A DNA stretch of 64,000 nucleotides, from contig CAMYKS010000005.1 of the NCBI GenBank assembly GCA_947259115.1, positions 410 through 64,409 on the forward strand, in the 5' to 3' direction. Made by a program: the position numbers and the translations under genes. Shown one piece after another: positions 3,768-24,141 of the stretch. Position 1 is the stretch's first letter, and each line of letters starts with the position of its first letter. A model generated the notes under the pieces. It was not told the origin of the DNA and searched no databases. It saw only the letters and a program-made list of their open reading frames with translations. The stretch is from an uncultured Desulfobulbaceae bacterium (GTDB taxonomy: Bacteria; Desulfobacterota; Desulfobulbia; Desulfobulbales; BM004).

Positions 3768-3997
3768 CACTCCAGAAATACTCAAGTTATTATTTAGCGT
3801 TTATTTCTTTTCATTAAGATGATAAATACCTAGCCAGGATTAAGGCTCAACGGCCAAGCACAAGAATGTGCATTTCACAACAGCAGGAAAAACATATAGT
3901 TTCATACGGCATACTGCTCTTCAGAAAAACCGTTGAAATCTCCTGTGAACAGAATTTTTCCATGGAAACAATATACCCTTTAGGAAACTAAATACAT

Positions 3998-5767: not shown

Positions 5768-5785
5768 ACGCAGGAGAGAACAGAT

Positions 5786-7531
5786 TTGCAAAACATATCA
5801 GCAGGAAACAAAAACGGTCATGCTGTCTTGGCCCCTGTTATCATGTTGGTCGATGATGAAATCACAACCCTGGAGATGATAGAAGCCTATCTTGAGAATG
5901 CAGGCTACAGCGAATTGGTTCTGGTGAGTGATCCCACAGAGGCTATAGACGTCCTTGAAGAAAGAGACCCGGATATTCTCCTGCTCGACCTTATCATGCC
6001 CAGGGTATCAGGTCTTGATATTTTGGCTGCATTAAGAAAAAAACCGAAATTCAAGCATCTGCCCATCATTATTTTAACTGCTTCCTCAGACCCACAGGAT
6101 AAAATCAAGGCCCTGGACCTGGGCGCTACAGATTTTCTGGCCAAGCCGGTGGACCCGACAGAACTGGCATTGCGCATTCGTAATACTGCAGCTGCCAAGT
6201 CTTACCTGGATTACCTCGCATTTTATGACAGCCTCACCGACCTGCCAAACAAGTCCTTGTTCCTTGACAGTTTTGACTGGGCCCTCAGGAAAGCGAAACG
6301 CTACAATGAGAAATTGGCCGTTTTGAATATCTCTTTGGATGATTTTGATAAAATCAATGCAACGGCTGGAAACGCAGCAGCTGACCAAATCCTGCAGCAG
6401 GTTTCCCTCCGAATTAAACAGGCGGTCAGGGATACAGATGTGCTTGGACCATCCATTAAGGTTAAAGCTTTTAAGCAGATGAATCTTTTCCGCGTGGAGG
6501 GCAGCTCTTTTTCCCTGCTTCTGGATCGTATCCACGGTGCTGAAAATGCAGCAATTGTGGCCAACCGTATCATTATGGCAATAAGAGAGCCTTTCAGTGT
6601 TGATGACAAAAATATTCACGTCAGGGCAAGTATCGGCATTGCAAACTATCCGGAAGACAGTGAAGAGCGGGACACATTGATTCATCTTGTCTGGGGTGCC
6701 AGGGATTATATCAGGAAAAAAGGCGGTGACTGTTTCCAGTTTTCAAATAGGTCCATCAACGACACATATGACAAAGAGCGTAATATTGAAAACATGCTGA
6801 GTGACGCCCTTGAAAGAGATGAGTTTGCGCTCAACTATCAGCCAAAGGTTGATATTGACTCCGGCATAATTACAGGAGTTGAAGCCTTGTTGCGCTGGGA
6901 AAGGGATGGGCGTTTCGTGCCGCCCGAAGACTTTGTTTCGGTTGCGGAACGAACGGGATTGATCATTCCCATCGGGGAGTGGATACTGAAGAAGGCGTTC
7001 CGTCAGCTGGCAGATTGGCACAAAGAGGGCATCATGATAGGTATGAGTGTCAATTTATCTGCCAAGCAACTGCAAAGCAGTGAATTCCATGATATTGTTG
7101 AAGATATAGTAAAGCACAGCAGAGTTGATCCTTTATATTTGACACTGGAAATCACCGAATCTCTCTTAATGGAGGACATTGAGCAGACAACAACGCTTCT
7201 GGAACGTTTCAAGGTCATGGGCCTTAAAGTATCCATCGATGATTTCGGCACCGGCTATTCATCATTGAACTATCTCAATCTTCTCCCTGTTGACGAGCTG
7301 AAGATCGATAGGTCCTTTATTAGCGAAATACCAGATAATGCAAAAAGAAATGCCATCGTCTCCACCATAATTTTTCTTTCAGAAAGTCTGGGTATACAGA
7401 CGGTTGCCGAAGGGGTTGAAAATGACAAGCAACTTCAGTTTCTCAAAAAAAATCGCTGTCATCAATACCAGGGGTATCTTTTCAGCCAACCTCTGACAAA
7501 CACTGAACTGTTAAATCTGATGAATAAATAA
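5786..7531 (+). CDS. Response regulator, REC - degenerate GGDEF - EAL (tandem paralog of 3998..5767)
   Basis: Same architecture as the upstream gene. GGDEF position reads FRVEGSSFSLLL. EAL motifs: EALLRW, NLSAKQ, EITES, DDFGTGYSSL, KIDRSF, EGVEN, QGYLFSQP. The start is a TTG preceded by AGGAGAG about 7 nt upstream, so it is less certain than the end. Confidence 0.85.
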   Translation: MQNISAGNKNGHAVLAPVIMLVDDEITTLEMIEAYLENAGYSELVLVSDPTEAIDVLEERDPDILLLDLIMPRVSGLDILAALRKKPKFKHLPIIILTASSDPQDKIKALDLGATDFLAKPVDPTELALRIRNTAAAKSYLDYLAFYDSLTDLPNKSLFLDSFDWALRKAKRYNEKLAVLNISLDDFDKINATAGNAAADQILQQVSLRIKQAVRDTDVLGPSIKVKAFKQMNLFRVEGSSFSLLLDRIHGAENAAIVANRIIMAIREPFSVDDKNIHVRASIGIANYPEDSEERDTLIHLVWGARDYIRKKGGDCFQFSNRSINDTYDKERNIENMLSDALERDEFALNYQPKVDIDSGIITGVEALLRWERDGRFVPPEDFVSVAERTGLIIPIGEWILKKAFRQLADWHKEGIMIGMSVNLSAKQLQSSEFHDIVEDIVKHSRVDPLYLTLEITESLLMEDIEQTTTLLERFKVMGLKVSIDDFGTGYSSLNYLNLLPVDELKIDRSFISEIPDNAKRNAIVSTIIFLSESLGIQTVAEGVENDKQLQFLKKNRCHQYQGYLFSQPLTNTELLNLMNK

Positions 7532-7957: not shown

Positions 7958-10036
7958 TCAATTTTTCTGCATGATCCCAAAATCCTCGAGGATCGTGCCT
8001 TTGGCCCATTTCAGTTTCAACATGGAGATGTTGTAGTTTGATATTGACCTGATATATGTGCGGTAGGCGAAGTAGTAATCATCCTGGGCGTCAAGAAGGG
8101 AATGGATATTTACCTGCCTGATCTCAAAACGGGATTTCTCCCTTGATAAAAGCCTGTGATTGGCTTGCCGCGAATTTCCCGTGGCCTCGATTTCTTTCGC
8201 CGACTGTTCAATTTCAGTGACTGAAGAATTTATCTGGAAGTTGATTTCCTCAGATATCTTGGCCAATGCCGCCTGTGACTGCTTTTCTTCATATACGACT
8301 TTCAGATAATCCGCTTCAGCTTTTCTCCCTCCGATGGGCCAGACAAACTCGAGACCAACCGCCCAGCTGTTATCATCACTGAAATATGTATCTTTAACAT
8401 CATCACTGAAATCTTCCCCCAGTGCATTGAAAGCATACATGGCCCTGGCATCAAGGGTCGGCAGCCTCATGTGCCTGGCAAGTTTCCTGTTTATTTCTGC
8501 TGCACTTACCCTGTTTTGGGCGATGCTATACTCCGGGCGCTTCAAAAGGGCTTCTTGCAGCAAGGCTGCCTTGTCCAATTCAACCTCTTTGCTGGACAAT
8601 CTCTCAGTCGGAATGATGGCAACATCCGCCCCGGCTGCCCCGGAGGCAAAGCCCAACAAGAGCTTTAACTGGTCCATTGCCAGTTTATAATCTGTGTTCG
8701 CTTTGATAAATATTGCTTTACGATCCTGCACGGAGGCAAGGGCCCGGTCGACATCCAGCAGGTCGGCAAGACCGCTTTCCTTGCGAAGGAGAAGTCTCTG
8801 GTAAATATCTTCCGCATCCTGCAGGTACTTGCGGCTGATACTTATCTGCTTGGCATAATAGACCAATCGCCAGTAATAGGTTCCCACTTCCCGCATGACG
8901 TTGGCCATGGTTTTGCGATATTCCATGCCGGAAACATTCAGGTTCAGGTCCGCAAGTTCCATGGCAGATCGATTAGTCGGATCGCCAAATTCCTTCAACA
9001 ATGCCTGCCGTAACTCCAGGGTAAGACGCGAGGTGTATTGTGGGTTAGGTATTACGAGATCACTGCTGCTATCCAGGTGGTCAACATCAAGGACGGAAAG
9101 CGATAATATGCCGCCGGTGGGCAACGGCTGTTTGATACCGGCCCGTGCGCCCCATCTATCTTCCACAAAACTGTCCGATTCCGTATCTCCCTCCCCAAGG
9201 TCAAGCTTGCTCTGTATGGGCCTGTCTGTTCTGGAAATATTACTTTCTGCAAAGAGAGAGGGGTCATAAACCGTGTGGGTTGATTTTTTTTCCTCTTCTG
9301 CAATTGGAGAAAGAAACGCTGCAACCTTGATATCAGGATTCTGATCAACAGCCACCCTGATCGCATCTTCAAGGCTTAATTTTATAGAGTTTCCGCCTGT
9401 TGGCAAAACATACACTTCAGTCATATCATCTTCATAAAGGCTTATACCTGCCTTTTGACCTGATACTTCTGCTGCAGCGGCCTCCTGCTGCTGAGACGCA
9501 GACACCACCTTCTCTGTTGCAACTTCTGCTGCATGCATTTGCTCTGCAGGTGCTGCAGCTTCTGTCTCAGGCCCCGTTTCCCGGCCCGGCTCTGCTGTCT
9601 GCAACATTTCAACGGCTGCATTATTAACTTTGTGGGGATCGGTCCTGACCTGTATAAAGTTGTACCCCCTGACTGCCAGCTTTTCCGTAATGGTTAGCAG
9701 ATCATCCCTGTTGGCTGCCCGTCCGAGACGCAGAGTATAGTAGCCGCTGTCTGTCTTGTAGACAAAAGCGTCCGGCTGCAGATCGCCGGGCAGGGCATCA
9801 TAAGCCCGCAGGGCTGCTGACTCGTAAACGTATGTATTAATCTGCAGGGAATACAGAACCGTCGGCAGTTCCGACCTGTCTGTCACATTGCTCTTTACTT
9901 CAGGCTGCCCGTATACACCGGCAAAACCAATTCCGGAATGGGCCAAAAGAAAAGCGGTCAGCAGGCAGTAAAAGAAAAAACGGGGGAATAACAGAGGTTT
10001 TTGCGACCTGCAGTTGCAGGTATTAATAAATTGCAT
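7958..10036 (-). CDS. TolC-family outer membrane channel with an N-terminal SPOR-like (peptidoglycan-binding) domain
   Basis: N-terminal signal-like hydrophobic region. Residues ~60-135, YSLQINTYVYESAALRAYDALPGDLQPDAFVYKTDSGYYTLRLGRAANRDDLLTITEKLAVRGYNFIQVRTD, fit the SPOR beta-alpha-beta-beta pattern (compare FtsN/DamX SPOR). An Ala/Glu linker follows, then ~470 aa typical of outer membrane efflux proteins (LSLEDAIRVAVDQNPDIKVA..., two coiled repeat halves). Confidence 0.75.
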   Translation of the reverse strand: MQFINTCNCRSQKPLLFPRFFFYCLLTAFLLAHSGIGFAGVYGQPEVKSNVTDRSELPTVLYSLQINTYVYESAALRAYDALPGDLQPDAFVYKTDSGYYTLRLGRAANRDDLLTITEKLAVRGYNFIQVRTDPHKVNNAAVEMLQTAEPGRETGPETEAAAPAEQMHAAEVATEKVVSASQQQEAAAAEVSGQKAGISLYEDDMTEVYVLPTGGNSIKLSLEDAIRVAVDQNPDIKVAAFLSPIAEEEKKSTHTVYDPSLFAESNISRTDRPIQSKLDLGEGDTESDSFVEDRWGARAGIKQPLPTGGILSLSVLDVDHLDSSSDLVIPNPQYTSRLTLELRQALLKEFGDPTNRSAMELADLNLNVSGMEYRKTMANVMREVGTYYWRLVYYAKQISISRKYLQDAEDIYQRLLLRKESGLADLLDVDRALASVQDRKAIFIKANTDYKLAMDQLKLLLGFASGAAGADVAIIPTERLSSKEVELDKAALLQEALLKRPEYSIAQNRVSAAEINRKLARHMRLPTLDARAMYAFNALGEDFSDDVKDTYFSDDNSWAVGLEFVWPIGGRKAEADYLKVVYEEKQSQAALAKISEEINFQINSSVTEIEQSAKEIEATGNSRQANHRLLSREKSRFEIRQVNIHSLLDAQDDYYFAYRTYIRSISNYNISMLKLKWAKGTILEDFGIMQKN

Positions 10037-10077: not shown

Positions 10078-10908
10078 TTACTCTTCTGACTTTTCCACAT
10101 CGGGAAAGGAAACGGTTACCCTCTCGCCGGCCGGCCGCTTGCCGGGGTTTGCTGCTATTACACTGATACGGAGTGTATTTGCTGCGGAATCCGCCACTGA
10201 CGCAATGTGGTCGATCTTTCCCTGCACCTCTTCTCCATCGGCAAATTTTATTACTGCTTGCTGGGTAACGGCCAATGATTTGGCATTGGATACCGGAACG
10301 GCAATATCGATCAGGAGCTCATTGATGTCAACTATGCGGATAACAGGCGCAAGGGCCTGTATGGATTCGCCTTTTTCAATTTTCACCTCTTCGACAATCC
10401 CATTGACAGGGCTCCTGATGTGAAGGTTGTTTAAAGCTGTTTTAAATTCCTTATGCTTCAACTGGTCCTGGGCGTGTTCAAACTCGGCCAGCTTTACCTC
10501 AAGCAGGGCGGTTTCGGCTGCCAGCCTTGCATGGTCAACCTCCCAGTCCGTAACAGCCCCGTTGCGATGGGCTTCCTCCATTTTCAGCAGGTCTTCTCTT
10601 TTCTGCAGGAATTCTGCCTGGCCTATCTTAATAATTGTCGTGTCATTGGCCTTGGCAGTTAACAACTGGTATTGAACCATTTCCACCTGCCCTTCCAAGC
10701 TGGCAAGTAGATCACCTACTGAGACGTGATGCCCTTCACTAACCGTCAATTTATCAACCTTGCCGTGCTGCACAAATGAAAGGCTGATATCCGCGCTGGG
10801 CTTGGTTATGGCTTCAACATCCAGCCCATGGGACAGGTGGGGTATGAAAAGAATGAACAACAGGGGGAGGGAAAAAATGGCAAGGTTTTTAAATGGGGCA
10901 GGCACCAT
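10078..10908 (-). CDS. Membrane-fusion protein / periplasmic adaptor (HlyD/RND-adaptor family)
   Basis: Start moved to the internal Met (MVPAPFKNLAIFSLPLLFILF), which has AAGGAA upstream. Contains a biotinyl/lipoyl-like hairpin (VSEGHHVSVGDLLASLE ... IRSPVNGIVEEVKIEKGESI), a coiled-coil and a beta-barrel. Lies 41 nt upstream of the TolC-like gene. Confidence 0.8.
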   Translation of the reverse strand: MVPAPFKNLAIFSLPLLFILFIPHLSHGLDVEAITKPSADISLSFVQHGKVDKLTVSEGHHVSVGDLLASLEGQVEMVQYQLLTAKANDTTIIKIGQAEFLQKREDLLKMEEAHRNGAVTDWEVDHARLAAETALLEVKLAEFEHAQDQLKHKEFKTALNNLHIRSPVNGIVEEVKIEKGESIQALAPVIRIVDINELLIDIAVPVSNAKSLAVTQQAVIKFADGEEVQGKIDHIASVADSAANTLRISVIAANPGKRPAGERVTVSFPDVEKSEE

Positions 10909-11175
10909 ATTATATTCCTTATTATATTGTTTTAATTGAAAATAGAGGACGATAACACTTTGAATCATTGAATAATTATGAGGATTTTTTCTGATTCCGA
11001 CCAATTTACAGAAATCTGATTTGCAGCCGGAAATTCATGGATCATGCAGCCAGATCAGCACATAAACACATTAAATATATAGTATTTTTGAAATAATTCC
11101 AACCATTAATATATAAATATTTCCTGCATGCTGCACTTTTCTGTCAGAAAAGGATGAATCTGATCAGCAAACGGG

Positions 11176-13167
11176 CTATTCGGATTTGCCTGAAAACGCC
11201 AGAGCGCTCTCCAGGGATTCATCAAGCTGCAGAAGCTCCTTGCGCATGCGGTAGTGTTTCCTTTCCAGGGAGCGCTGGGCCCGGCGCATTAAAAACCTGC
11301 AGAAGAGCAGATGAAGTTCACTGTTTCCACGGGCTGCCAGGCGCAGCAACATTCCGCCAAAGGTCTTTGCGAAAGGTTGCAATATCTCGTCATCCAGGGA
11401 TATATATGCTTCATGCGTGCCGGGATCGCCCTGGCGACCGCAGCGCCCGAAAAGCTGGCGGTCAATGCGCCTGGCGCTGTGCGGTTCCGTGCAAAGCACC
11501 TGCAGCCCACCCATATCTCTCACACCGGGTCCGAGCCTGATGTCCGTTCCCCGGCCGGCCATGTTGGTGGCAACGGTTATCTGTCCTTTGTCCCCTGCCC
11601 GGGCAATAACGGCGGCCTCATCTTTATCCTGCCGGGCATTCAGGACCTTATACTCCAGGCCGTTTTCGCTCAACAGACGGCTGATTTTCTCTGAAACGGT
11701 GACCGTTGGCGTGCCAATAAGCACGGGCCTGCCTTTACGGTTAAGTTCTTTAGCCCGCTGCACAACGGCGGACAATTTATTCTTCTCAGTCCTAAAATAG
11801 CGTTCGGGCAGTCCCCGGCGGATTAACGGCTTATTGGTCGGGATCCGGACAAATTTGAGGCCGTAAACCGTCCATAGTTCCCTAGCCACCTCACGTGCTG
11901 TGCCGGTCATTCCTGCCAGCATCTGATAACGCCTGAAAAAGCGCTGATAGCTTATCCTGGCAAGAGTTTCTTTCTGCGTAGAAATGGCGCAGTTCTCCTT
12001 GCACTCGATAAGCTGATGCAAACCCCTTTCCCATGAGCGGTCTGCCATGCGCCGCCCAGTGTATTCATCGATTATCTCAACCTTGTTGTCTTGCACCAGG
12101 TACTCTTTGTCTCTGTGAAAATGATGCAGAGCGACTAGTGCCATGTTTACCATTGCTTCACGCCGGCGCGAGGAAACCCAGAAGCCGCCGGCCGGGTTTG
12201 CCAGTGAGTCCAGGAAATCGCGACCTGCCTCGGTTAACTCAATGCTTTTGGCAGCCCTGTCGGAGCTGTAATGTTCAATGCTCTTGAGCTGTTTTGCAAA
12301 AGCCAGGGCCTGGACATAGGCCTTTTTTTCAAAGCTGCTGTCGCCTGCTCCGGAAATGATTAACGGGGTCCTGGCCTCATCTATCAGAACGGAGTCGGCC
12401 TCATCGATAATGGCAAAACAGAGCCCTCGCAGGATGAGGTCCTTCAAAGAACCGGCCGGGCCATAAAGTCTCTGCAACGAATAAGCAATGGGCCCGGGTT
12501 TCCGTCTGAGGCGCAGATGATCCTTCAGGTAATCAAAGACAATCTCTTTATTTGTGCAGTACACCACATCCTGCTGATACACTTTCCTCCGTTCAGCAGG
12601 AGACATATCATGGCGGATAACTCCAACACTTATACCCAGGGCTTCATAAATGGGCCCCATCCATGTTGCATCCCGCTCGGCAAGGTAATCGTTGACCGTA
12701 ATTATATGTACAGGTATGCCGGCAAGAGCGGCTGTACTGGCCGGCAATGTTGCGGTCAATGTCTTGCCCTCCCCGGTTTCCATCTCTGCAACCACACCAT
12801 TTAAGAGGGCATAGCCCCCGATGAGCTGCACATCATAATGCCTGGTGCCAAGGGTTCGTTCAGCCTGTTCGCTCACCAGAGCAAAGGCGCGGGCCGTGTT
12901 TGCAAGAGATATTCCTTCCTGCCGGAACTTTCTTCGCAACTCTGCGGCTTCGGTTTCCAATTGTCTCCCTTCGAATCTCCGGAATGCCGGGCTGAACTTA
13001 TTCACTTCTTCGATAATGGCATGAAAGCGCTCAAAGCTGGCGCCATAGCGGCTGAAAAGGTAGCCGGGATAATCATGCAGCAGGCTTTCAAATTGACTGC
13101 GAACCTCCGGGCTCCGCTCCGGATAAAAGCCGTATTTCTTTTCAAATAACATGGAATTACTAGACAT
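11176..13167 (-). CDS. SecA-like ATPase (motor domains retained, C-terminal third absent)
   Basis: Diagnostic SecA motifs: HYDVQLIGGYALLNGVVAEMETGEGKTLTATLPA, VHIITVNDYLAERDATWMGPIYEALGISVG, AIIDEADSVLIDEARTPLIISG, MLAGMTGTA, VATNMAGRGTDIRLG, GGLQVLCTEPHSARRIDRQLFGRCGRQGDPGTHEAYISLDDE. Only ~75 aa follow the last motif. The start is set at ATG 13167, which overlaps the upstream stop (ATGTCTAG); ATG 13152 is an alternative. Confidence 0.85.
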   Translation of the reverse strand: MSSNSMLFEKKYGFYPERSPEVRSQFESLLHDYPGYLFSRYGASFERFHAIIEEVNKFSPAFRRFEGRQLETEAAELRRKFRQEGISLANTARAFALVSEQAERTLGTRHYDVQLIGGYALLNGVVAEMETGEGKTLTATLPASTAALAGIPVHIITVNDYLAERDATWMGPIYEALGISVGVIRHDMSPAERRKVYQQDVVYCTNKEIVFDYLKDHLRLRRKPGPIAYSLQRLYGPAGSLKDLILRGLCFAIIDEADSVLIDEARTPLIISGAGDSSFEKKAYVQALAFAKQLKSIEHYSSDRAAKSIELTEAGRDFLDSLANPAGGFWVSSRRREAMVNMALVALHHFHRDKEYLVQDNKVEIIDEYTGRRMADRSWERGLHQLIECKENCAISTQKETLARISYQRFFRRYQMLAGMTGTAREVARELWTVYGLKFVRIPTNKPLIRRGLPERYFRTEKNKLSAVVQRAKELNRKGRPVLIGTPTVTVSEKISRLLSENGLEYKVLNARQDKDEAAVIARAGDKGQITVATNMAGRGTDIRLGPGVRDMGGLQVLCTEPHSARRIDRQLFGRCGRQGDPGTHEAYISLDDEILQPFAKTFGGMLLRLAARGNSELHLLFCRFLMRRAQRSLERKHYRMRKELLQLDESLESALAFSGKSE

Positions 13168-15307
13168 TAAAACGCTTGAGGAATAGTTGACGAACACTGC
13201 GATACCATTGAAATGCAAGGGGTTCATACCCATGGTCGAAGCGCACGTACACCCGGCTGCCGATATAGAACTTCTCCAATGGTTCGCCCATGGCTAAATC
13301 AAACTGGAAGTACCGTTCGAATGTTTTACTGCCGCTCCTGTCCAGGGGATCAACAGCGATACTGCCGCCGCCGGCAACCCCAAGGGCTGTACTTGGCAGG
13401 TGGTCAACCGCACCGGGAATTTCCCGCTCGACCTTTGCCGTATAGACCACATGCGGTTTCACTGAAAAACGTAATTCGACGCCCTCTGTTTTGCCCCGTA
13501 TCAAATCAATGTTTCTCTGCGGAACTACTACACGTATGATTGTTGCATCCTGTTTAAGGACATATCCCAGCAACTCTCCCTGTTCAATAAACCTGCCTTT
13601 CAGGTCAGCCGCCTGCGGCAGCACAAACATACCCTCTGCGGGACTTGTGATCAGCATCTCAGCAAGCCTTTCTTCGGCGCGGGACAGTCTCTCCCGGATG
13701 CCTATAATCTCTTCCTGCAGGATGGACGCCTGAACTTTATCCGTGGCGTATGCGGCATTATAGCGCAGCTCGTATTCCTTCAGCCGGGACTGGAAAATCT
13801 TTATCTGTGTGGACAGAAAGGGATCCCGGCACTCAATGAGAACTTCATTTTTTGCAACGTTACCATTTGCTTGCGCATGGATTTCTGCAACAATTCCGGC
13901 TGTGTTGGAGCGAACTTGCGCATCCTCGGGTACCCAGACAACCCCCTCGGTACGGGAATGATATGGGAACGGCAGCAGGAAGAGGAGCAGCAGCAGGCAG
14001 GTTATTACCGAGACAATAACCAGAATTATCCTGTTTCTGTTGGCCTGGTGAACAGGTGCGCTCAGCAGGGTCTGTATTTTTTTGTAAAGCGGCAGGATGA
14101 TGAACGAAAACCCTCCCCAAAGAGCCAAGAGTACTCCGAATATATAAAATTTACCGGCCACAAAGAGTATGATGGCCCCATAGATGAAAATCCGGTAGCA
14201 AAAGGAGGTAATTCCGTAAAAGAAGAGCCAGAAACGCTCCCCTGGGGCCATGTTGGGAGTTTCTATCCTGCTGTTCCCAAAGACATATCTGTTAATCAGA
14301 TAGCCGAGATATTGCATGCTGCGCTGGGCCAGGTTCGGGATATTCAGTAAATCGGCAAGAATATAATAGCCGTCATATCTGAGTAAAGGGTTGCCGTTGA
14401 AAAGCAGCGTGGAAACCCCGCCGATAAGAATGATGTTGTAGGCTGCTGCCCGCAGAAGACCGGGCTCCATGGAGAGCCAGATAAACATGGCAAATGACGC
14501 AAGCAGCATTTCAACAGCTATGCCGGCAGCGCCCACCGTTAGCCGCTGACGCCTCCGGGGAAAAACAGCTGATGAAGAGGCATCCACATAGGGAATCGGC
14601 ATAAAAACCAGAAACATGATCCCCATTTCATGCACTTCCCCGCCCCACCTCTTGACAGCATATCCGTGGCTTAATTCATGCAGGCCTTTGACGAAGGGAT
14701 ATATGATCAGCAATATGATAAGGTTGTCTTTAGCAAACACCCTGTCGGCCAGGTTTCTCGTCAGTTCATCCCAGTTGATCCCGGCCTGGACAAGCGCTGT
14801 CCCGATAATAAATACACAGAGCAGCAGGCCCGGCAAGGTATACACATACTTGACGTAACGCACTGTTCTTTCCAGAAACAGGTCGGGGTCAAGCAGAGGC
14901 AAACGGAAATAAAACGGGTTGGAAAATTTTACCTTCCTGGAGCTTTTTTCAGATTTTCGACTGCGCAACAGAAGCTCTCTGGTGTCGGGTTCCACATCGC
15001 ACAACAACACATCAGCCTCATAGAGGCGGCTGAGAAGCTGCACCATTTCCACCTGCGTGGGCGCATCATCGCTATACTCTTGCGAGACTTTCTCCCACAA
15101 CTTCTGGACGCTGTGCCTGCCGTTCATCATGCCGATCACCCTGTAGGCAATGGGGGTGAACCGAAAGACCTTGCCGGTGAGGTGGTCCTGCAGAACATAC
15201 CATAACTCGCCCCGGTATTGATGCCGGTGAATCTGTGCATGTACCTTGATCCGGGGTTTCAGGTGTGCGACTCTATACCATGAGGGACTGAATATCGTGT
15301 CTTGCAT
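13160..15307 (-). CDS. Polytopic membrane protein: M50/site-2-protease core fused to a C-terminal HlyD-type periplasmic adaptor domain
   Basis: HExxH in a TM helix (GLHELSHGYAVKRWGGEVHEMG) and the second S2P motif FNGNPLLRYDGYYILAD. About 8 hydrophobic helices lie between aa 165 and 445. The C-terminal ~270 aa have a lipoyl-like hairpin, coiled-coil and barrel (VRSNTAGIVAEIHAQANGNVAKNEVL...ITSPAEGMFV). The N-terminal ~110 aa are soluble. Confidence 0.8.
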   Translation of the reverse strand: MQDTIFSPSWYRVAHLKPRIKVHAQIHRHQYRGELWYVLQDHLTGKVFRFTPIAYRVIGMMNGRHSVQKLWEKVSQEYSDDAPTQVEMVQLLSRLYEADVLLCDVEPDTRELLLRSRKSEKSSRKVKFSNPFYFRLPLLDPDLFLERTVRYVKYVYTLPGLLLCVFIIGTALVQAGINWDELTRNLADRVFAKDNLIILLIIYPFVKGLHELSHGYAVKRWGGEVHEMGIMFLVFMPIPYVDASSSAVFPRRRQRLTVGAAGIAVEMLLASFAMFIWLSMEPGLLRAAAYNIILIGGVSTLLFNGNPLLRYDGYYILADLLNIPNLAQRSMQYLGYLINRYVFGNSRIETPNMAPGERFWLFFYGITSFCYRIFIYGAIILFVAGKFYIFGVLLALWGGFSFIILPLYKKIQTLLSAPVHQANRNRIILVIVSVITCLLLLLFLLPFPYHSRTEGVVWVPEDAQVRSNTAGIVAEIHAQANGNVAKNEVLIECRDPFLSTQIKIFQSRLKEYELRYNAAYATDKVQASILQEEIIGIRERLSRAEERLAEMLITSPAEGMFVLPQAADLKGRFIEQGELLGYVLKQDATIIRVVVPQRNIDLIRGKTEGVELRFSVKPHVVYTAKVEREIPGAVDHLPSTALGVAGGGSIAVDPLDRSGSKTFERYFQFDLAMGEPLEKFYIGSRVYVRFDHGYEPLAFQWYRSVRQLFLKRFNV

Positions 15308-15314
15308 CTTTGCT

Positions 15315-17183
15315 CTACGATATTTTTACCCAGAAACGGATGCGCATCCAATCAATAAGATCATGCATCCAGATCCAGATCAATTTACGGCGGGCCACAT
15401 GAATCTTTCCGTAGCCCTGCATTCCCGGCCTGAGCTTCTTTGAGTCCTGCAGGATACTGCCCTCCACAAGAAAGAAATTACTGCCCTCCCTGGTGGTTGT
15501 CACAGGTGTTATTTTTTCAACCGTAAAAGCATACGGACTGCCGGGCATGGCATTTAAAACAAGTTCTCCCTTCTGCCCAACTGCAACCTGATCAATGTCC
15601 CCCTCCGCAACTTCGAGCATGACCCTATAAGAGTCAAGCGGGGCAATCTGAAACAGGGTCTGCCCCCGCTCTATGGGAGCGCCGATGGATTGGCTCCAGT
15701 CGCCGCTGATAATTATGCCGTCAAAGGGTACGCTGATTTTGGCCCGGGCGATCTGCTCGTCCAGCAATGACACCTCGGATTCAGCCTGGCTCATCTGTTC
15801 CCGTATTATGTTGGACTCTGCGATCTCGTTCTTTGCCAGGGACTGGTTATATTCCAGGGCCAGCTGTTTTCGCTGGCTCGCCGACTTCAGACGCTTCAGC
15901 AGCAGGTCACGTGTATCCAGGCTGGCCAGAACTTGATCCTTGCTGACGATATCCCCAGCCCGGGCAGGGGCCTCATTGAGGTAACCGTCAAAAGGAGCAA
16001 TGACAGAACGCTGCACAGTGCCTTCCAGAACACTCGTTGCCGAAACCCGGTAATCGCCGCTGGCAACTGCAAAAAAAAGCAGCAGAGCGGCAAGGCAGCA
16101 GAACCCTAACTTCATAGCCGAATTTCCCGGACCGCAAAGCATGCGAAACCGCTCCGAGAGATGAAGCGCTGCTTTCCTGTAAAGGGGCAGATCATTCAAC
16201 TTTTTTGCTTTGAGGGTCGGACCGAGCAGGGCGGCAACCGCTTCACAGAGCAGAACCGTATTATTATCAAACGACTTCTCCGATATCCTTTCAAATGTAA
16301 GGGCCCCATAGCCTTCGTTGTCAACACCAAGAAAGGGGACCGTCAGAATGGACCGGGACCCGTGCATATTCTGCAGGACTCCATGGCAGCGTTGTATTGC
16401 ATCATCCTGTCCAGCAGCAGGGGGATACAGTATTGTTGTGCTCTGGTCAATGCTTTCATCCATGGCTTCCCCGATGGAACCGACCAGGTTCATTTTCCCG
16501 GCAAACTGGGCACTATGGGAAATGGCATCCACTTTGACCTGATTTTTTGCGCTGAATCCGATGCTGACACGTTCACACCCTAGACGGGTGGCAAGCTCGT
16601 TAACTGCAACTATTGCTGCGTCTTTAAACCTCTTCTCCTGGAGCACCGGAGCCATAACATCGAAAACCGTCATTAGGCGCTGTTGCAGCGTGTCGCCGGT
16701 CGCCCCCCCCTCAACACCATTGGTTTTATGTAAAAAAAGGCTCTCAAGCCATGCCGTACCCCACTGAATCTGGCCCATGGACATTTGCAGTTCCCGGTCA
16801 GAGGCTATCCGCAACTGAAAAACCACAACTCCCTGACGTTTTGTGCCGGCAGTGAACGGGCACCCGAGAAAAACAGATTTGCCTACATCTGCGCTGCAGT
16901 TTTTTATACCGGCTTCAAGCGAGGCAAAACATTTACCTTCCGACAGAACACGCAGAACAATTTCATCAAACCCGTCCAAGGGCTGGGGACTTTCCGGCCA
17001 GGAGGCGGCACGGGTGGGCCGGGAACCGGCTTTTGGGTCCAGATACACTGCAGCGCACTGGAGATCATGCATCATACTGCATTGAAGATTCAACCAGTTG
17101 CAGCAGAACTCCTCTTCCTTCCCAGAAGCATGAAGTTTTTGCCACATTGTCTTATTTGCAAATGAAAAATCGGCTGTATTCAT
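15315..17183 (-). CDS. GAF-like cytoplasmic domain(s) - TM - HlyD-family periplasmic adaptor fusion
   Basis: The N-terminal ~340 aa are soluble with GAF-like segments (my recognition, not verified). A single TM follows (LGFCCLAALLLFFAVASG). The HlyD-type adaptor comes next: VIAPFDGYLNEAPARAGDIVSKDQVLASLD, a coiled-coil, ISVPFDGIIISGDW, then a barrel. Its stop lies 7 nt from the start of the M50 fusion gene. Confidence 0.7.
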   Translation of the reverse strand: MNTADFSFANKTMWQKLHASGKEEEFCCNWLNLQCSMMHDLQCAAVYLDPKAGSRPTRAASWPESPQPLDGFDEIVLRVLSEGKCFASLEAGIKNCSADVGKSVFLGCPFTAGTKRQGVVVFQLRIASDRELQMSMGQIQWGTAWLESLFLHKTNGVEGGATGDTLQQRLMTVFDVMAPVLQEKRFKDAAIVAVNELATRLGCERVSIGFSAKNQVKVDAISHSAQFAGKMNLVGSIGEAMDESIDQSTTILYPPAAGQDDAIQRCHGVLQNMHGSRSILTVPFLGVDNEGYGALTFERISEKSFDNNTVLLCEAVAALLGPTLKAKKLNDLPLYRKAALHLSERFRMLCGPGNSAMKLGFCCLAALLLFFAVASGDYRVSATSVLEGTVQRSVIAPFDGYLNEAPARAGDIVSKDQVLASLDTRDLLLKRLKSASQRKQLALEYNQSLAKNEIAESNIIREQMSQAESEVSLLDEQIARAKISVPFDGIIISGDWSQSIGAPIERGQTLFQIAPLDSYRVMLEVAEGDIDQVAVGQKGELVLNAMPGSPYAFTVEKITPVTTTREGSNFFLVEGSILQDSKKLRPGMQGYGKIHVARRKLIWIWMHDLIDWMRIRFWVKIS

Positions 17184-17548
17184 CTTAAAAAAATTTTGCC
17201 CTGTAGGATTTTTCTATGACAGGCATAAGCAGTATTGTTGCAGGCCCAATAATTTTTTACTTCCAGTTCTGTAGATTCTGCTAGCGACACTCCCCTGGAA
17301 TCCATCCCCATATAACTTTTGGGGGAATATCACAAAGTTACAACAAAAAACAGCTTTTTGCTGCAATTCTGCAAAAACACTGCAAATTTTCTTATTTTCC
17401 CGGCACATAATATTGTCTAATCAAGCACTCATCATTAAAGAATATTCTTCATTTTTTCCATATACTCACTCCAACAGACATTTTTTTAATTTTTAATTAC
17501 ACAATTATATCAAATAGATAAATACAATTTATAGAAAAACCCTACAAA

Positions 17549-17564
17549 TGGCACACCCTTTGCT
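17549..17564 (+). promoter_or_regulatory. Sigma-54 (-24/-12) promoter
   Basis: TGGCACACCCTTTGCT matches the TGGCAC-N5-TTGCW consensus at every specified position. It lies 56 nt upstream of the ATG at 17620. Confidence 0.75.
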
Positions 17565-17619
17565 GAATACGCTATGGCAGTAGGGTTTACCTATCCAAAA
17601 CTTATAACTTAAAGAAGAG

Positions 17620-18438
17620 ATGAAAAACATGGATCTAAACAAAAAAACCATAGCAGTCTTGGGCTCATTGCTGATGAGCCTCGTTTTCGTTGTGCATGCC
17701 CACTCTGCAACTGTGCAGCGCTCAAATTTTATTGTGGCAAATCTTTCCTGCACTTCCTGCCTGGCGACTATAGAGACTGAGTTAAAAGGTATACCGGGCA
17801 CCCTGGGTATGGACGCCGACCTTCGCTCCGGCAGAGTAACCGTTGACCACCTGTCCTCTCTGGATTACGAAGAGATCGCTAAAACCATCAGCAATCTGGG
17901 CTATCCTGCCACTGCAGACTGGACTGCAACGGTCCCTGAACAGTCTACAAAGAAATTTGCCCCGCAAAGCCAATACCGCTCCGGTTGCTCCAGCGGAGGC
18001 TGCGGTAATGCAGGCGGCGACGGAGCAGGCCCGACGGCTTGGAAATCTCCCCCTGCCACCGGTACGGTCAACCGGACAACCATGCAGGTCAACAAACTTT
18101 CCTGTACGTCCTGCCTGAACAATATTGCTGCTGAACTGAGTAAACTCTCTGAAACTTATGGCATGAACGGCTATTTAAGCAGGGGAATTGTCCTGGTTGA
18201 CCATGAAGACTCACTGGAGAATAACAGGATCGCTGCAATCATCTCTGACCTCGGATATCCGGCAAGGGTTGTTTCAACCAACGAAATCCCGGCCCAAAAA
18301 GCTTTTACAAAAAACCCGCAGAGAGGTTCAGTAAAACAGCGAGGCAGGGGTTGCGGCTCCAAAGGCCCATGCAATGCAACATCAGCATCATGGCAGAAAT
18401 TATACAATCGTTACTTTACCCAGACAAATGCTAAATAG
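17620..18438 (+). CDS. Secreted protein with two HMA-like (heavy-metal-associated) domains and Cys-rich linkers
   Basis: Signal peptide MKNMDLNKKTIAVLGSLLMSLVFVVHAHSA. Two ~65-aa repeats each carry SCTSC (CxxC) at the HMA metal-loop position (VANLSCTSCLATIETELKGIPG; VNKLSCTSCLNNIAAELSKL), followed by ...GYPA. Linkers CSSGGCGNAGGDG and GRGCGSKGPCNA. Confidence 0.7.
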   Translation: MKNMDLNKKTIAVLGSLLMSLVFVVHAHSATVQRSNFIVANLSCTSCLATIETELKGIPGTLGMDADLRSGRVTVDHLSSLDYEEIAKTISNLGYPATADWTATVPEQSTKKFAPQSQYRSGCSSGGCGNAGGDGAGPTAWKSPPATGTVNRTTMQVNKLSCTSCLNNIAAELSKLSETYGMNGYLSRGIVLVDHEDSLENNRIAAIISDLGYPARVVSTNEIPAQKAFTKNPQRGSVKQRGRGCGSKGPCNATSASWQKLYNRYFTQTNAK

Positions 18439-18472
18439 ATATACAGCTCATAACCGATGGAGGTTTTTTAAG

Positions 18473-18964
18473 ATGGTAACTGTGAGAAAAAATTCATTTA
18501 AAATTACAATTTTTCTATTGTCCCTGGCAGCTTTAATTTTTAGTGGCTGTTCCAGTTCAACGGCCAGTAAAAGTGCTTTAACCGGCGGTCTCATCACACC
18601 GACCAACGGCAAGCTTGAAATCCCGGTTGCCGGTATCAGTGACGGTAAAGCCCATCATTTCCAGGTCAAGTCGGAGGACGGCTCCATGGTCACCTTTTTT
18701 GTACTCAAAAGTGCTGACGGTGTTCTCCGTGCTGCCATTGACGCCTGCGATGTCTGTTACCGCTCGGGTCTCGGATATTACCAGGAAGGGGACAAGATGG
18801 TCTGCAAGAACTGCGGTCAGAAATTTGCCTCCAACAAGATCAATGTCATCAAGGGCGGCTGTAACCCGGCCCCGCTGAACAGGGTTGTTGATGGTGACAC
18901 GTTGGTGATCCAGATGCGGGACATCAACATGAACAGCTGGTACATGAAATACCGCCAGTCTTAA
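18473..18964 (+). CDS. Lipoprotein with DUF2318-like Cys4 domain
   Basis: Start moved to MVTVRKNSFKITIFLLSLAALIFSGCSSS (lipobox FSGC, GGAGG upstream). Contains AAIDACDVCYRSGLGYYQEGDKMVCKNCGQKF...IKGGCNPAPL (CxxC...CxxC), which I recognise as the DUF2318-type pattern. Confidence 0.6.
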   Translation: MVTVRKNSFKITIFLLSLAALIFSGCSSSTASKSALTGGLITPTNGKLEIPVAGISDGKAHHFQVKSEDGSMVTFFVLKSADGVLRAAIDACDVCYRSGLGYYQEGDKMVCKNCGQKFASNKINVIKGGCNPAPLNRVVDGDTLVIQMRDINMNSWYMKYRQS

Positions 18965-19012
18965 TAGGATGCCTGAATAACAGACCGTTATAACGACATA
19001 AGGATCAGACTA

Positions 19013-19441
19013 ATGACCTACAATTTAGATAAATATAGGGATAAACGGGAAAAGGTGCTCGGGGTGAAAAAACGGGGCATCAGCTTCGGCACCATGGCCG
19101 GAATAGTCTCGCTGGTAATTATCCTTGGCTTAGGTGTTGTGGTGGTACCCAAGTCGATTGCCTACTTCAACACCAGGCACCTGGATGATGTCATTTATAA
19201 ACTGCAGAATGCCGAAAGCTGGACGCCGGAAACAATCACCGCCATCCAGCAGCTGGCAGGGGTTAAAAATGTTGAAACGGACAACAACAGCACAAGGATC
19301 ATTATTACCTTTGATAAATCAATAACCAATACCTATGACATTAACGCCTTCTTCAAACAGAGGGACATCCAGATAGTTCTGCTCAACCAGGTCGGTCATG
19401 CCCACAGGCTGCAGATCATGGAAAAAGAATCCAAGTTTTAA
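19013..19441 (+). CDS. Small membrane-anchored protein of unknown function (possible Cys-less HMA-like fold)
   Basis: One N-terminal TM (MAGIVSLVIILGLGVVVV). The C-terminal part, AGVKNVETDNNSTRIIITFDKSITNTYDINAFF, resembles a ferredoxin-like beta-alpha-beta domain without a CxxC. Packed tightly in the operon. Confidence 0.45.
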   Translation: MTYNLDKYRDKREKVLGVKKRGISFGTMAGIVSLVIILGLGVVVVPKSIAYFNTRHLDDVIYKLQNAESWTPETITAIQQLAGVKNVETDNNSTRIIITFDKSITNTYDINAFFKQRDIQIVLLNQVGHAHRLQIMEKESKF

Positions 19442-19451
19442 GGATAACACG

Positions 19452-20609
19452 ATGAAACTGCATAATATCTCATTCAATAACTTAAAGCGCCGCAAGGGCA
19501 AGATGATCTTTCTGGTCCTGGGGCTTTTTATCGGCATTGCCACCATCGTTACCCTGCTGTCGATCACCGAATCCATGAGTCGCGACATTGAAGACCGGCT
19601 TGACCAGTTCGGCGCCAACATTGTCATGGTTCCCAGAAGCGACAACCTGGCCCTCACCTACGGCGGTATCACCATGGGCGGTGTTAATTACCAGACGGTG
19701 GAGTTTTCCGAGGAGCGTATCCCTGAGATCAGGACCATAGAAAATTCCAAGAATCTTGGCCTTGTTGCAGCAAAAGTTCTCGGCGCCGCAAAGATCAAGA
19801 AAAGAGACGTGCTGCTCATGGGGGTTGAGTTTGAAACAGAATTGCAGCTGAAAAACTGGTGGCAGTTTGATGGCACACCACCGGCCGCGCCCCATGACCT
19901 GCTAATCGGCTCCCAGGCCGCGGCCACATTCGATGTGGTTGTCGGCGACAAGCTGGAAATTGGCGGCAGGGATTTTGTCGTTACTTCCATCCTGAAACCG
20001 ACCGGCACCTCGGAAGACGGCATCATCATCGGCGACCTGCATGCCTTCCAGAAGATACTGGGCAAAGAAGGCACGGTTTCGATGGTGGAAGTGCAGGCCT
20101 TCTGCCGAGACTGCCCCATAACGGAGATGGTGCTGCAGATAAGTGAGAAATTCCCTGAAGCAAAGGTGACCGGCCTGCGGCAGGCAATGATGTCGAAAAT
20201 GCAGACAGTTGAAATGTTTAAAACCTTCAGCTACGGTATTGCCATACTGGTAATTTTTATCGGTTCACTGCTGGTTTTTGTCACCATGATGGGATCTGTC
20301 AACGAACGGACCCGGGAGATCGGCATATTCCGCGCCATCGGCTTCCGCCGCGGCCATGTCATGCAGATCATCCTGCTGGAAGCCATGGTTGTGGGACTAA
20401 TAGGCGGTCTCCTCGGATACATAGGCGGTAACGGCATTGCCTGGGCGGCCTTGCCGCTGGTAGTCAAGAACGGTTCTTTTGCTGGATTAAATTATAACCT
20501 GGGAGGAGTGGCACTCCTGCTATCTGTTGCCCTAAGCCTGATTGCAAGCCTCTACCCTGCTCAGAAAGCAAGTAAGCTTGATCCAAGTGAAGCATTAAGG
20601 GCCCTGTAA
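19452..20609 (+). CDS. ABC transporter permease, FtsX/MacB type
   Basis: Start moved to MKLHNISFNNLKRRKGKMIFLVLGLFIGIATIV. Has the typical N-terminal TM, a ~230-aa periplasmic domain and a C-terminal FtsX 3-TM bundle (REIGIFRAIGFRRGHVMQIILLEAMVVGLIGG). Confidence 0.85.
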   Translation: MKLHNISFNNLKRRKGKMIFLVLGLFIGIATIVTLLSITESMSRDIEDRLDQFGANIVMVPRSDNLALTYGGITMGGVNYQTVEFSEERIPEIRTIENSKNLGLVAAKVLGAAKIKKRDVLLMGVEFETELQLKNWWQFDGTPPAAPHDLLIGSQAAATFDVVVGDKLEIGGRDFVVTSILKPTGTSEDGIIIGDLHAFQKILGKEGTVSMVEVQAFCRDCPITEMVLQISEKFPEAKVTGLRQAMMSKMQTVEMFKTFSYGIAILVIFIGSLLVFVTMMGSVNERTREIGIFRAIGFRRGHVMQIILLEAMVVGLIGGLLGYIGGNGIAWAALPLVVKNGSFAGLNYNLGGVALLLSVALSLIASLYPAQKASKLDPSEALRAL

Positions 20610-20640
20610 TGATTTTTATTCAATAAAATAGGATTGCACC

Positions 20641-21354
20641 ATGACAAACATGACCCATAATTCTGCTGTAGAAACAAACGTACAGCACCTTATTGAAATC
20701 CAGAATATCGGCAAGGACTACCAGGAAGGCGAGAGCACGGTTCAGGCCATAAGAGAGATGAGTTTTTTTATAGATGACGGTGAATTTGTCTCCATAATGG
20801 GGCAGTCAGGCTCTGGAAAATCCACCCTGCTTTCCATCCTGGGCGGGCTCAATCATCCGACCCGGGGACGAATACTTCTCGATACACTGGATATATACGA
20901 ACTCTCCAGCGAACAACGGGCTGATTTGAGAAGTGAATATATCGGGGTTATCTTTCAGTCCTTTCAGCTGATACCTTACCTGACTGTATTGGAAAACGTA
21001 AAACTGCCCATGGCGATTACCGGCAAAAAAGCCAAGGTGCAGGACAAGATGGCCCGCGATGTCCTCGACCGCGTTGGCCTGGCTAACAAGGCAGACCGGT
21101 TGCCTGACCAGCTGTCAGGCGGGGAACAGGAAAGGGTTGCCATTGCCAGGGCCATTGTCAATAAACCGCCAATTCTCCTAGCCGATGAGCCCACCGGCAG
21201 TCTGGACAGTAAGACTGCAGACGAAATCATGGCCCTGCTCAAAGAACTCAACAGTGAAGGCCAGACCATTATCATGGTTACCCACAACCCTGAAGCATGT
21301 AAACATACATCGAGAATCATTCAAGTCAGGGATGGTTCCTGTCATACGAATTAA
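20641..21354 (+). CDS. ABC transporter ATP-binding protein (MacB/LolD-like)
   Basis: Walker A GQSGSGKST, Q-loop, signature LSGGEQERVAIARA, Walker B ILLADEPTGSLD, H-loop VTHN. Confidence 0.9.
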   Translation: MTNMTHNSAVETNVQHLIEIQNIGKDYQEGESTVQAIREMSFFIDDGEFVSIMGQSGSGKSTLLSILGGLNHPTRGRILLDTLDIYELSSEQRADLRSEYIGVIFQSFQLIPYLTVLENVKLPMAITGKKAKVQDKMARDVLDRVGLANKADRLPDQLSGGEQERVAIARAIVNKPPILLADEPTGSLDSKTADEIMALLKELNSEGQTIIMVTHNPEACKHTSRIIQVRDGSCHTN

Positions 21355-22995: not shown

Positions 22996-23104
22996 CTTTT
23001 TTTAAAACGAATTCTCTTTTACAGTCACTCCCTAACAAATAGTTCACGATCCCTTATTGAGATATATTCGGCTATTGATGCGAACCCTGATTGAATTAAA
23101 AAAA

Positions 23105-23128
23105 GGCAGGGCCGTTTCTGGCCCTGCC
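23105..23128. terminator. Bidirectional rho-independent terminator
   Basis: GGCAGGGCC-gtttct-GGCCCTGCC is a perfect 9-bp stem with an A-run upstream and a T-run downstream. It sits between convergent genes (22995 end on the plus strand, 23156 end on the minus strand). Confidence 0.8.
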
Positions 23129-23155
23129 AATTATATTTTTTATACAAAAAAAAAA

Positions 23156-23935: not shown

Positions 23936-24006
23936 TTTTTATTCCAATTTTTTAATGTATAAAAACAACTCTTCCATAAATGTATAACGTTGACTGCAAA
24001 CATAAA

Positions 24007-24022
24007 TGCAATGATCATACCA
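24007..24022 (-). promoter_or_regulatory. Sigma-54 promoter of PEP-CTERM gene 1
   Basis: The minus strand reads TGGTATGATCATTGCA (TGG-N9-TTGCA spacing correct). It lies 72-87 nt upstream of the ATG at 23935. Confidence 0.65.
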
Positions 24023-24103
24023 TTTACATAAAAAATATTTTCACTAATTCAATCAATTGTTTATGGTATTATCATGCGATATAGGAGCTCATTGGAAATT
24101 GTT

Positions 24104-24141
24104 TTTTCCGGAAAACTTTTCCGGATTCCTGGAATCCGGAA
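24104..24141. promoter_or_regulatory. Palindromic upstream site (candidate enhancer/activator binding site)
   Basis: TTTTCCGGAAAA (24104-15) is a 12-bp palindrome. TTCCGGATTCCTGGAATCCGGAA (24119-41) is a perfect 23-bp palindrome. The site begins 82 nt beyond the sigma-54 element. The intervening AT-rich DNA contains AATCAATTGTTTA, which fits the IHF pattern WATCAANNNNTTR. Confidence 0.6.

Follow-up and report, generated by a model that had tools for sequence, protein, structure and literature searches.

An RRE–M50–adaptor fusion protein as the candidate hub of a proposed TolC-dependent exporter for giant LEPR-XLL proteins

A stretch of 64,000 nt from contig CAMYKS010000005.1 (assembly GCA_947259115.1) of an uncultured Desulfobulbaceae bacterium, referred to below as the window, contains a gene whose product joins an RRE/PqqD-like domain, an M50 (site-2 protease, S2P) membrane core and a HlyD-type periplasmic adaptor. 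With moderate confidence we propose a TolC-dependent, one-step exporter for giant proteins with the LEPR-XLL leader that has this fusion protein as its hub in the inner membrane: the RRE-like domain would dock the leader, cleavage would take place at the M50 site, and a SecA-like protein would drive the chain outwards. By computational analysis the protein has three domains, an intact catalytic site and an N-in/C-out topology; its gene lies in a conserved operon, and this operon is associated with genes encoding LEPR-XLL giants. The coordinates of the main features are collected in Table 1.

The initial annotation of this DNA had described an S2P core fused in one chain to a HlyD adaptor and a PqqD/RRE-like N-terminus, and this architecture is borne out by profile searches, 58 homologs, an AlphaFold2 model and Foldseek comparisons. 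Among the Pfam families, HlyD_3 (PF13437) matches residues 570-628 with 25.3 bits (gathering score 22.2), Peptidase_M50 (PF02163) matches residues 207-346 with 25.0 bits (gathering score 27.2), and PqqD (PF05402) matches residues 37-100 with 23.1 bits (gathering score 23.4). Since two of these three matches are marginal in the protein taken alone, the scan was extended to the family, with 58 full-length homologs searched singly at E ≤ 1e-3: PqqD was found in 52 of them (best E-value 1.3e-8), M50 in 50 and HlyD_3 in 22. Further, the NCBIfam model daptide_HExxH (NF041824), which describes an RRE domain followed by an S2P core, covers residues 22-394 in one block with E = 6.5e-45. The score, 153.9 bits, is well under the model cutoff of 300, and by this measure the protein is a relative of the daptide RRE-S2P leader peptidases and not a member of that family.

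The family to which the fusion protein belongs is very large, and its length is nearly constant. A protein search returned more than 7,700 homologs, the best 120 of which are all full length (700-732 aa). An exhaustive HMMER scan over 1.84 billion cluster representatives (clusters at 50% identity) yielded 12,500 matches at E ≤ 1e-3 and about 4,500 at E ≤ 1e-30, with lengths of about 715 aa in the top 150. The HELSH and NGNPLLRYDG motifs were recovered by translation at the places given for them in the initial annotation, and H210, E211, H214, N304, N306, P307, L308, R310, D312 and G313 do not vary among the 58 aligned homologs. Thus the M50 active site (H210, E211, H214, D312) is predicted to be competent, as had been claimed, and it is not degenerate in the orthologs. 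With more than 7,700 homologs, and with no change of a catalytic residue in any of the 58 aligned ones, the three-part architecture is beyond chance. In the RRE-like domain the same alignment has eight invariant residues, W36, Y37, R49, F50, P52, W71, Q85 and L95; among those in the groove-forming elements are R49 and F50 (beta3) and Q85 and L95 (alpha3).

An AlphaFold2 model of the whole protein, built on the 58-sequence alignment, has a mean pLDDT of 82. It consists of a beta3-alpha3 domain at residues 26-97, a helical membrane bundle at 141-445, and a lipoyl/50-residue alpha-hairpin/beta-barrel part at 446-715; a second model, of residues 1-445 alone, has a pLDDT of 79. DSSP assigns to the RRE-like domain strands at 26-31, 34-40 and 47-50 and helices at 52-59, 67-81 and 85-97. 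When residues 1-445 were compared to the PDB with Foldseek, the first rank was taken by the S2P of Methanocaldococcus jannaschii (3b4r_B; probability 0.99, E = 0.05, TMt 0.43) and ranks 2-7 by leader-bound B1 RREs of lasso-peptide pathways (6jx3, 5v1u and 5v1v; probability 1.00), with TM-scores of 0.72-0.75 relative to the target structure and a root-mean-square deviation of about 3 Å. The RRE of the sactipeptide enzyme CteB (5why) occupies ranks 11-13. A single-sequence phmmer search of the PDB with the RRE region gave no match, and the resemblance is seen by fold search instead. Together, the profile matches in 52 of the 58 homologs and the predicted fold support the RRE/PqqD-like character of the N-terminus, which the initial annotation had suggested from a segment corresponding to residues 37-102.

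For the whole chain the first Foldseek matches in the PDB are the membrane-fusion proteins MexA, MacA, AcrA and EmrA (E about 1e-11, about 270 columns), and the adaptor domain itself aligns with MexA (1vf7) with E = 2.5e-11 over 268 columns. With the PF13437 match above its gathering score, these matches agree with the membrane-fusion fold that had been attributed to the C-terminal 270 aa. The number of transmembrane (TM) helices has to be corrected from about eight to seven, which both the model and hydropathy place at residues ~152-177, 193-215, 252-279, 284-304, 357-386, 388-416 and 424-445; a beta-hairpin (225-243) follows the HExxH helix. Seven helices imply an N-in/C-out protein with the adaptor in the periplasm, and the helix at 424-445, directly before the adaptor domain, places that domain outside the cytoplasm. 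According to the model and hydropathy, the cytoplasmic end of TM2 carries HExxH and D312 follows shortly after TM4, so that both motifs are at the cytoplasmic face.

The gene is the second of five genes on the minus strand, the others encoding, in order, an adaptor with a GAF domain (GAF-adaptor) in the first position and, in the third to fifth, a SecA paralog, a small adaptor and a TolC-family protein. These four are obligate partners that the initial annotation had missed. The GAF-adaptor matches the Pfam families GAF, HlyD_3 and HlyD_D23, and its stop codon lies 7 nt ahead of the start of the fusion gene. The SecA paralog matches SecA_DEAD (1e-106), SecA_PP_bind and P-loop_SecA and has intact Walker/DEAD ATPase motifs, but it is alignable only to residues 18-607 of Bacillus subtilis SecA, so that the wing, two-helix finger/IRA1 and C-tail are missing. 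These are parts with which canonical SecA acts on SecY. Its score is below every NCBIfam cutoff for SecA and SecA2 (633.6 versus 814 for PRK12904). Judging by its homologs, its true start is likely the ATG at 13167, for a protein of 663 aa; at the junction ATGTCTAG this start overlaps the stop codon of the fusion gene by 8 nt, and the same overlap is seen in other genomes. The small adaptor probably starts at M33 (nt 10908). The TolC-family protein has an N-terminal extension of about 230 aa with a weak SPOR-like (peptidoglycan-binding) match, which is unusual for TolC proteins, and a linker rich in Ala, Glu and Gln ahead of its OEP repeats. A scan of the operon for promoters and terminators gave counts equal to the shuffled expectation.

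In a scan that took one genome per species we found at least 599 loci, the best 80 of which were analyzed. They span the α-, β- and γ-proteobacteria, Desulfobacterota, Myxococcota, Nitrospirota, Rokubacteria and Flavobacteriales, and the protein search adds Omnitrophota. The gene order is strongly conserved: the GAF-adaptor is directly upstream of the fusion gene in all 73 loci with room for a gene there, the SecA-like gene is directly downstream in 74 of the 80, and in most loci a homolog of the small adaptor follows. The TolC gene is also adjacent in four loci (L001, L082, L084 and L086) and on a Methylosinus plasmid. The GAF region occurs only where the SecA paralog occurs, and we therefore suspect that it is a docking or regulatory platform for this protein.

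Clustering of neighboring open reading frames in the 80 loci revealed no conserved ABC exporter, RND or MFS pump, or tailoring enzyme for peptides that are ribosomally synthesized and then post-translationally modified (RiPPs). This bears on the database names 'efflux RND transporter periplasmic adaptor' and 'site-2 protease family protein', which imply a generic tripartite efflux pump or a signalling protein of regulated intramembrane proteolysis. Such automatic annotations, and the fact that adaptor and TolC genes are common to drug and metal pumps, are what speaks for this explanation, but the locus has no conserved RND, MFS or ABC pump gene, an anti-sigma/sigma pair is absent, and neither the RRE domain nor a SecA paralog with a preprotein clamp has a role in small-molecule efflux; we regard it as very improbable. 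The names given in RefSeq to homologs of the fusion protein vary widely ('PqqD family protein', 'peptidase M50', 'site-2 protease family protein', 'biotin/lipoyl-binding protein', 'hypothetical protein'). For the SecA paralog RefSeq has 'prepilin peptidase' or 'DEAD/DEAH box helicase', and these names are annotation errors, since Pfam identifies the domains SecA_DEAD, SecA_PP_bind and P-loop_SecA.

The most telling neighbors of the operon are genes for giant proteins of RTX, LamG/PKD, cadherin and DUF4347 types. An open reading frame of at least 1,500 aa on the same strand ends less than 3.5 kb upstream in 28 of the 48 genome loci whose upstream sequence extends over at least 7.5 kb, and 29 of the 39 related loci having both flanks possess a giant gene on one or the other side. 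In all five annotated RefSeq plasmid loci the gene directly upstream encodes 8,148-12,918 aa. Where the start of a genome-locus giant is visible (11 cases of 11), the protein begins with φ-E-x-L-E-P-R-x-L-L-S-A-D after a short basic stretch. With the plasmids (four of five) included, the LEPR-XLL motif, of which the peptide KIIFDTLEPRVLLNADV is an example, is present in 15 of 16 visible N-termini. Four representative giants from the genome loci all pass the cutoff of NF012209 ('LEPR-8K', LEPR-XLL domain), scoring 22-28 bits versus 17; two of the plasmid giants are already annotated as 'LEPR-XLL domain-containing protein', and the motif was verified in two more, those of Methylosinus and Mesorhizobium. 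No conserved signal was found in the C-termini of the giants.

The relation to daptide biosynthesis gives these N-termini a further aspect. In the daptide study (10.1101/2023.03.08.531785) the RRE-S2P peptidase goes with precursors that bear the leader motif ELExMEAP, and to our eye this motif resembles φ-E-x-L-E-P-R. In the daptide peptidase MpaP (NF041824), as in the present protein, an RRE domain precedes an HExxH M50 core, and the proposed logic is alike as well: the RRE would bind a leader motif and the membrane protease would remove the leader. The present protein differs by the 270-aa periplasmic adaptor, by its Gram-negative hosts, and by its partners, the SecA paralog, adaptors and TolC. 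The likely substrates here are proteins of thousands of residues. The daptide genes MpaA/B/C/D/M are absent from the neighborhood, and an aminotransferase, methyltransferase, decarboxylase or Thr-terminated precursor was found neither in the window nor in the 80 loci. The epipeptide peptidases YydH/LiaK (NF058609) are more distant from the fusion protein than MpaP.

The same homologies form the basis of another explanation, namely that the operon is a module for maturation and export of a RiPP or bacteriocin, in which the leader of a small ribosomal peptide would be bound by the RRE and, as happens in daptides and epipeptides, removed by M50, with adaptor and TolC serving to export the product. 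An RRE fold is typical of RiPP pathways, and NCBI names some homologs 'PqqD family peptide modification chaperone'. The initial annotation had suggested a search for co-occurring small open reading frames or RiPP-like precursors, but none convincing turned up among open reading frames of at least 20 aa in the upstream region (17184-17620), about 430 nt without a plausible precursor, or in neighbor clustering over 83 loci (the 80 genome loci and L001-L003), where the only conserved family of small open reading frames is DUF3467. Together with the lack of tailoring enzymes in the 80 loci, a daptide-model score far under its cutoff, and the strong and specific association with giant genes, this makes a RiPP module improbable.

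We retain as the best model the sequence of events outlined in the initial annotation, from binding of a leader to a cut within the membrane and hand-off to an outer-membrane duct, with two changes. First, the leader is likely the LEPR-XLL segment of giant surface proteins (2,000 to more than 12,000 aa) and not that of a small RiPP precursor. Second, the truncated SecA-like ATPase, the GAF-adaptor, the third adaptor and TolC are added as partners. In this exporter model the cytoplasmic RRE-like domain would capture the leader, a short basic N-terminus followed by φ-E-x-L-E-P-R-x-L-L-S-A-D. The SecA paralog, translationally coupled to the fusion protein and retaining the polypeptide clamp while having lost the SecY-engaging parts, would then use ATP to thread the unfolded chain from the N- to the C-terminus. 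The chain would cross a putative inner-membrane assembly of M50 TM bundles and adaptor TM anchors, and enter a sleeve formed by the adaptor domains of three proteins (the GAF-adaptor, the fusion protein and the small adaptor) that would lead to the TolC duct. Finally, the M50 site at the cytoplasmic face would clip the leader and free the mature protein, thus acting as a built-in signal peptidase. It is from domain content and gene company that we infer binding of LEPR-XLL by the RRE-like domain, its cleavage by M50, the motor role of the SecA-like protein and the stoichiometry of the assembly.

A more distant sister system, without the SecA paralog and the GAF region, was found in Kosakonia, Burkholderia anthina, Eleftheria terrae and Azospirillum as well as on IncF plasmids of E. 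coli, where it is present in 18 plasmid records. This system retains the full RRE-M50-adaptor fusion, two adaptors and TolC; the Kosakonia fusion protein reaches E = 8e-44 in hhalign over 640 columns, the N-terminal domain included. The sister system adjoins genes for Ig-like, DUF4347 or VCBS proteins of 2,347-4,457 aa, which start with LE[PSA]Rxx[FY]D[GA][AS]. By comparison of the N-termini, the leader core is common to both systems, and its tail varies with the system type (13 versus 5 examples). Genes named 'tail fiber protein' often adjoin the sister system.

These variants have to be considered along with an alternative role of the fusion protein, in tethering and release. An ABC-type type I secretion system (T1SS) encoded elsewhere would export the giants C-terminus first, the fusion protein would hold the N-terminal LEPR-XLL segment at the inner-membrane/duct end of a TolC-adaptor assembly, and the M50 cut would release the adhesin, in the manner of LapG/LapD for LapA. 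Variants without SecA have no motor, which suits such a role, as do the RTX repeats in many neighboring giants and the DUF4347 domain that follows the leader in some of them and could serve as a retention plug; the GAF domain and the cyclic di-GMP (c-di-GMP) genes nearby in the window would be suited to regulated release. On the other hand, TolC and three adaptors are encoded in the locus itself, in this subfamily together with a polypeptide-translocating ATPase, no ABC exporter is conserved nearby, and the E. coli IncF plasmids hold only the giant, TolC, the adaptors and the fusion protein. We consider tethering and release plausible but unlikely, and the strongest competitor of the exporter model.

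Several observations weigh against the exporter model itself. All of its functional links rest on guilt by association. The scores of the protein for M50 and PqqD are slightly under the Pfam thresholds. Neither the window nor its closest syntenic relative (L084, 78% identity) has a giant or a LEPR-XLL gene within reach, and no giant is present in 10 of the 39 related loci with both flanks. The giant on the Alisedimentitalea plasmid lacks the motif at the start annotated for it. RTX repeats, a hallmark of T1SS substrates with a C-terminal signal, occur in many giants, and an ABC exporter encoded elsewhere could be the real translocator of these proteins. Finally, the SecA-less variants have no adjacent ATPase, so a motor role of SecA is not universal. 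As regards the window, six-frame profile searches of its 64 kb for LEPR-XLL, DUF4347, DUF3467 and SapC found none of them; its largest open reading frame has 954 aa, and the other large ones are housekeeping or unrelated. If the exporter model holds, the substrate gene must therefore be elsewhere in the genome, perhaps on another part of the 214-kb contig or outside it. A relative with 58% identity has a gene of 5,879 aa and DUF3467 upstream.

We rate the system as a variant of tripartite adaptor/TolC export. With T1SS (HlyBD-TolC, LapBCE, and peptidase-containing ABC transporters, PCATs, with HlyD) it shares the tripartite, envelope-spanning design, adaptors of the HlyD type, the TolC duct, and neighboring giants that are repeat-rich and often RTX-bearing as candidate substrates; a putative leader peptidase built into the exporter is a further likeness, to PCATs. 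It differs in having no ABC transporter, with a SecA paralog as the candidate motor, an M50 peptidase in place of C39, a candidate signal that is N-terminal (LEPR-XLL) and not C-terminal, and three distinct adaptors, two of which are fused to cytoplasmic or membrane modules. Thus it does not classify as a T1SS: adaptors and TolC are present, but no ABC exporter is conserved and the C-termini of the giants are unconserved. More than one membrane-fusion protein in a TolC-dependent assembly is known from TriABC-OpmH, which is similar in this respect; the present system has three adaptors, one fused to a protease and one to GAF, and no RND pump.

The SecA paralog shares with SecA and accessory SecA2 the two nucleotide-binding domains (NBD1 and NBD2), the preprotein cross-linking domain (PPXD) and intact ATPase motifs. 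It differs by the loss of the wing, two-helix finger/IRA1 and C-tail, is unlinked to secY, and is always coupled to the M50-adaptor gene. Similarly truncated SecA modules are embedded within giant proteins of Omnitrophota, as described by West-Roberts et al. (10.1101/2023.11.21.568195); this is a parallel to the present system, with an arrangement that is not the same.

In a broader and more tentative proposal, which is quite possible but less secure than the exporter model, the operon would represent a distinct, widespread and unnamed secretion system. The RRE would read an N-terminal leader on the LEPR-XLL giants, which are the largest of all bacterial proteins, a SecY-independent SecA would push the chain N-terminus first, possibly during translation, into the adaptor/TolC duct, and M50 would cut, so that Sec-, T1SS- and RiPP-type logic would be merged. 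None of the five operon proteins has a model dedicated to it in NCBIfam release 20, and full-text literature searches, with subscription literature outside their reach, found no paper describing the operon; the machine is apparently undescribed. A 2026 preprint on the Chlorochromatium symbiosis reports LEPRxLL giants without a known transport signal, and proposes a sapC/tolC/hlyD route for them (10.64898/2026.03.19.712371).

Three kinds of extra neighbors recur beside the operon: the giant open reading frames, DUF3467 and SapC. In 25 of the 83 loci (for instance, L046 7583-7918 and L001 7706-8032) a DUF3467 gene (about 110 aa) directly precedes the GAF-adaptor gene, and the DUF3467 protein might be a dedicated chaperone. 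Searches of the PDB with DUF3467 by sequence or profile gave no match. A comparison to E. coli SecB in hhalign was not significant, and a SecB-like chaperone is a lead at most; the PYAAKRL segment of DUF3467 is weakly like the start of the FPYAREC helix of SecB. Genes of the SapC family (PF07277) are inside or beside the operon in 16 of the 83 loci, namely in 15 of the 80 genome loci and in L002/L003; examples are L054 12185-12982 and L088 22260-23081. The LEPRxLL giants of Chlorobium chlorochromatii have a sapC gene beside them as well (10.64898/2026.03.19.712371). In two Desulfobacterota-like loci, the SecA paralog and the small adaptor are separated by a DUF4344 gene ('putative metallopeptidase') on the opposite strand (L001 14141-15151 and L086 14142-15164, both minus).

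In the window, genes for a hybrid histidine kinase (PAS-HisKA-HATPase-REC-Hpt) and two REC-GGDEF-EAL proteins (903-7531, plus strand) converge on the TolC gene, an arrangement that is syntenic in L084; a link of c-di-GMP control to the GAF-adaptor is possible. On the other side, a divergent cluster (17620-21354, plus strand) encodes an HMA-domain protein, an FtrD-like protein, a small membrane protein, a MacB-type FtsX permease and an ABC ATPase, and has no adaptor of its own. Its MacB-type ABC genes (19398-21354) are conserved only in the closest relative, L084. As the cluster is syntenic in L084 and absent from the other loci, it is probably unrelated to the exporter. Further away, a VIT-VWA protein (60144-62273), a sigma-54 activator (57773-59293) and a PLD-family protein (55863-57776), all on the minus strand, are encoded in a row and are unrelated to the exporter.

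Table 1. Features of the fusion gene and its operon in the window, and of related loci in other replicons (coordinates of the latter refer to the respective locus or record)
Feature	Coordinates	Strand	Description and evidence
Fusion gene	13160..15307	minus	ATG start, 715 aa; RRE/PqqD-like domain, M50 core with 7 TM helices and HlyD-type adaptor in a single chain
RRE/PqqD-like winged-helix domain, cytoplasmic	14993..15250	minus	residues ~20-105; PF05402, Foldseek, alignment
M50/S2P transmembrane core	13973..14887	minus	residues 141-445; PF02163, NF041824, DSSP, hydropathy, Foldseek
HELSH zinc-binding and catalytic motif	14666..14680	minus	residues 210-214 (H210, E211, H214); translation
NGNPLLRYDG motif, third zinc ligand D312	14369..14398	minus	residues 304-313; translation
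Membrane-fusion (HlyD/MexA-like) domain, periplasmic	13163..13972	minus	residues 446-715; lipoyl, alpha-hairpin 496-549, beta-barrel
GAF-adaptor	15315..17183	minus	622 aa; cytoplasmic region of ~350 aa with GAF, TM 356-374, periplasmic HlyD adaptor
Truncated SecA-like ATPase	11176..13233	minus	NBD1, preprotein cross-linking domain, NBD2, start of scaffold helix
Small third adaptor (RND_mfp/HlyD)	10078..11004	minus	N-terminal signal or anchor; TIGR01730 102.9 bits versus cutoff 94.9; Pfam
TolC-family outer-membrane factor	7958..10036	minus	692 aa, signal peptide; PF02321 OEP 4.2e-34, two repeats; TIGR01844
SecA paralog, RefSeq plasmid NZ_AP022333.1 (L087)	22222-24138		Pfam
SecA paralog, RefSeq plasmid NZ_CP085155.1 (L088)	23074-25098		Pfam
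Sister locus, E. coli IncF plasmid NZ_CP104683.1 (L099)	record 96967-116712		
Sister locus, Kosakonia (L096)			
Sister locus, Burkholderia anthina (L103)			
Sister locus, Eleftheria terrae (L104)			

The finding bears on how bacteria export proteins of 8,000-36,000 residues. The existence of cultured carriers (Pseudosulfitobacter sp. DSM 107133, Mesorhizobium ciceri R30, Methylosinus sp. C49 and Neptuniibacter caesariensis MED92) and of the E. coli plasmid variant makes the idea directly testable. If LEPR-XLL is a leader read by the fusion protein, a function would follow for hundreds of genes that are 'hypothetical' or misnamed ('PqqD family chaperone', 'prepilin peptidase', 'RND adaptor'). 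An N-terminal signal would allow export of a chain of more than 10,000 residues to begin before its synthesis ends, which the C-terminal signal of a T1SS cannot do. If LEPR-XLL is such a leader, the RRE, so far regarded as a hallmark of small-peptide natural-product pathways, would also serve in protein secretion, and SecA would have a second role that is independent of SecY.

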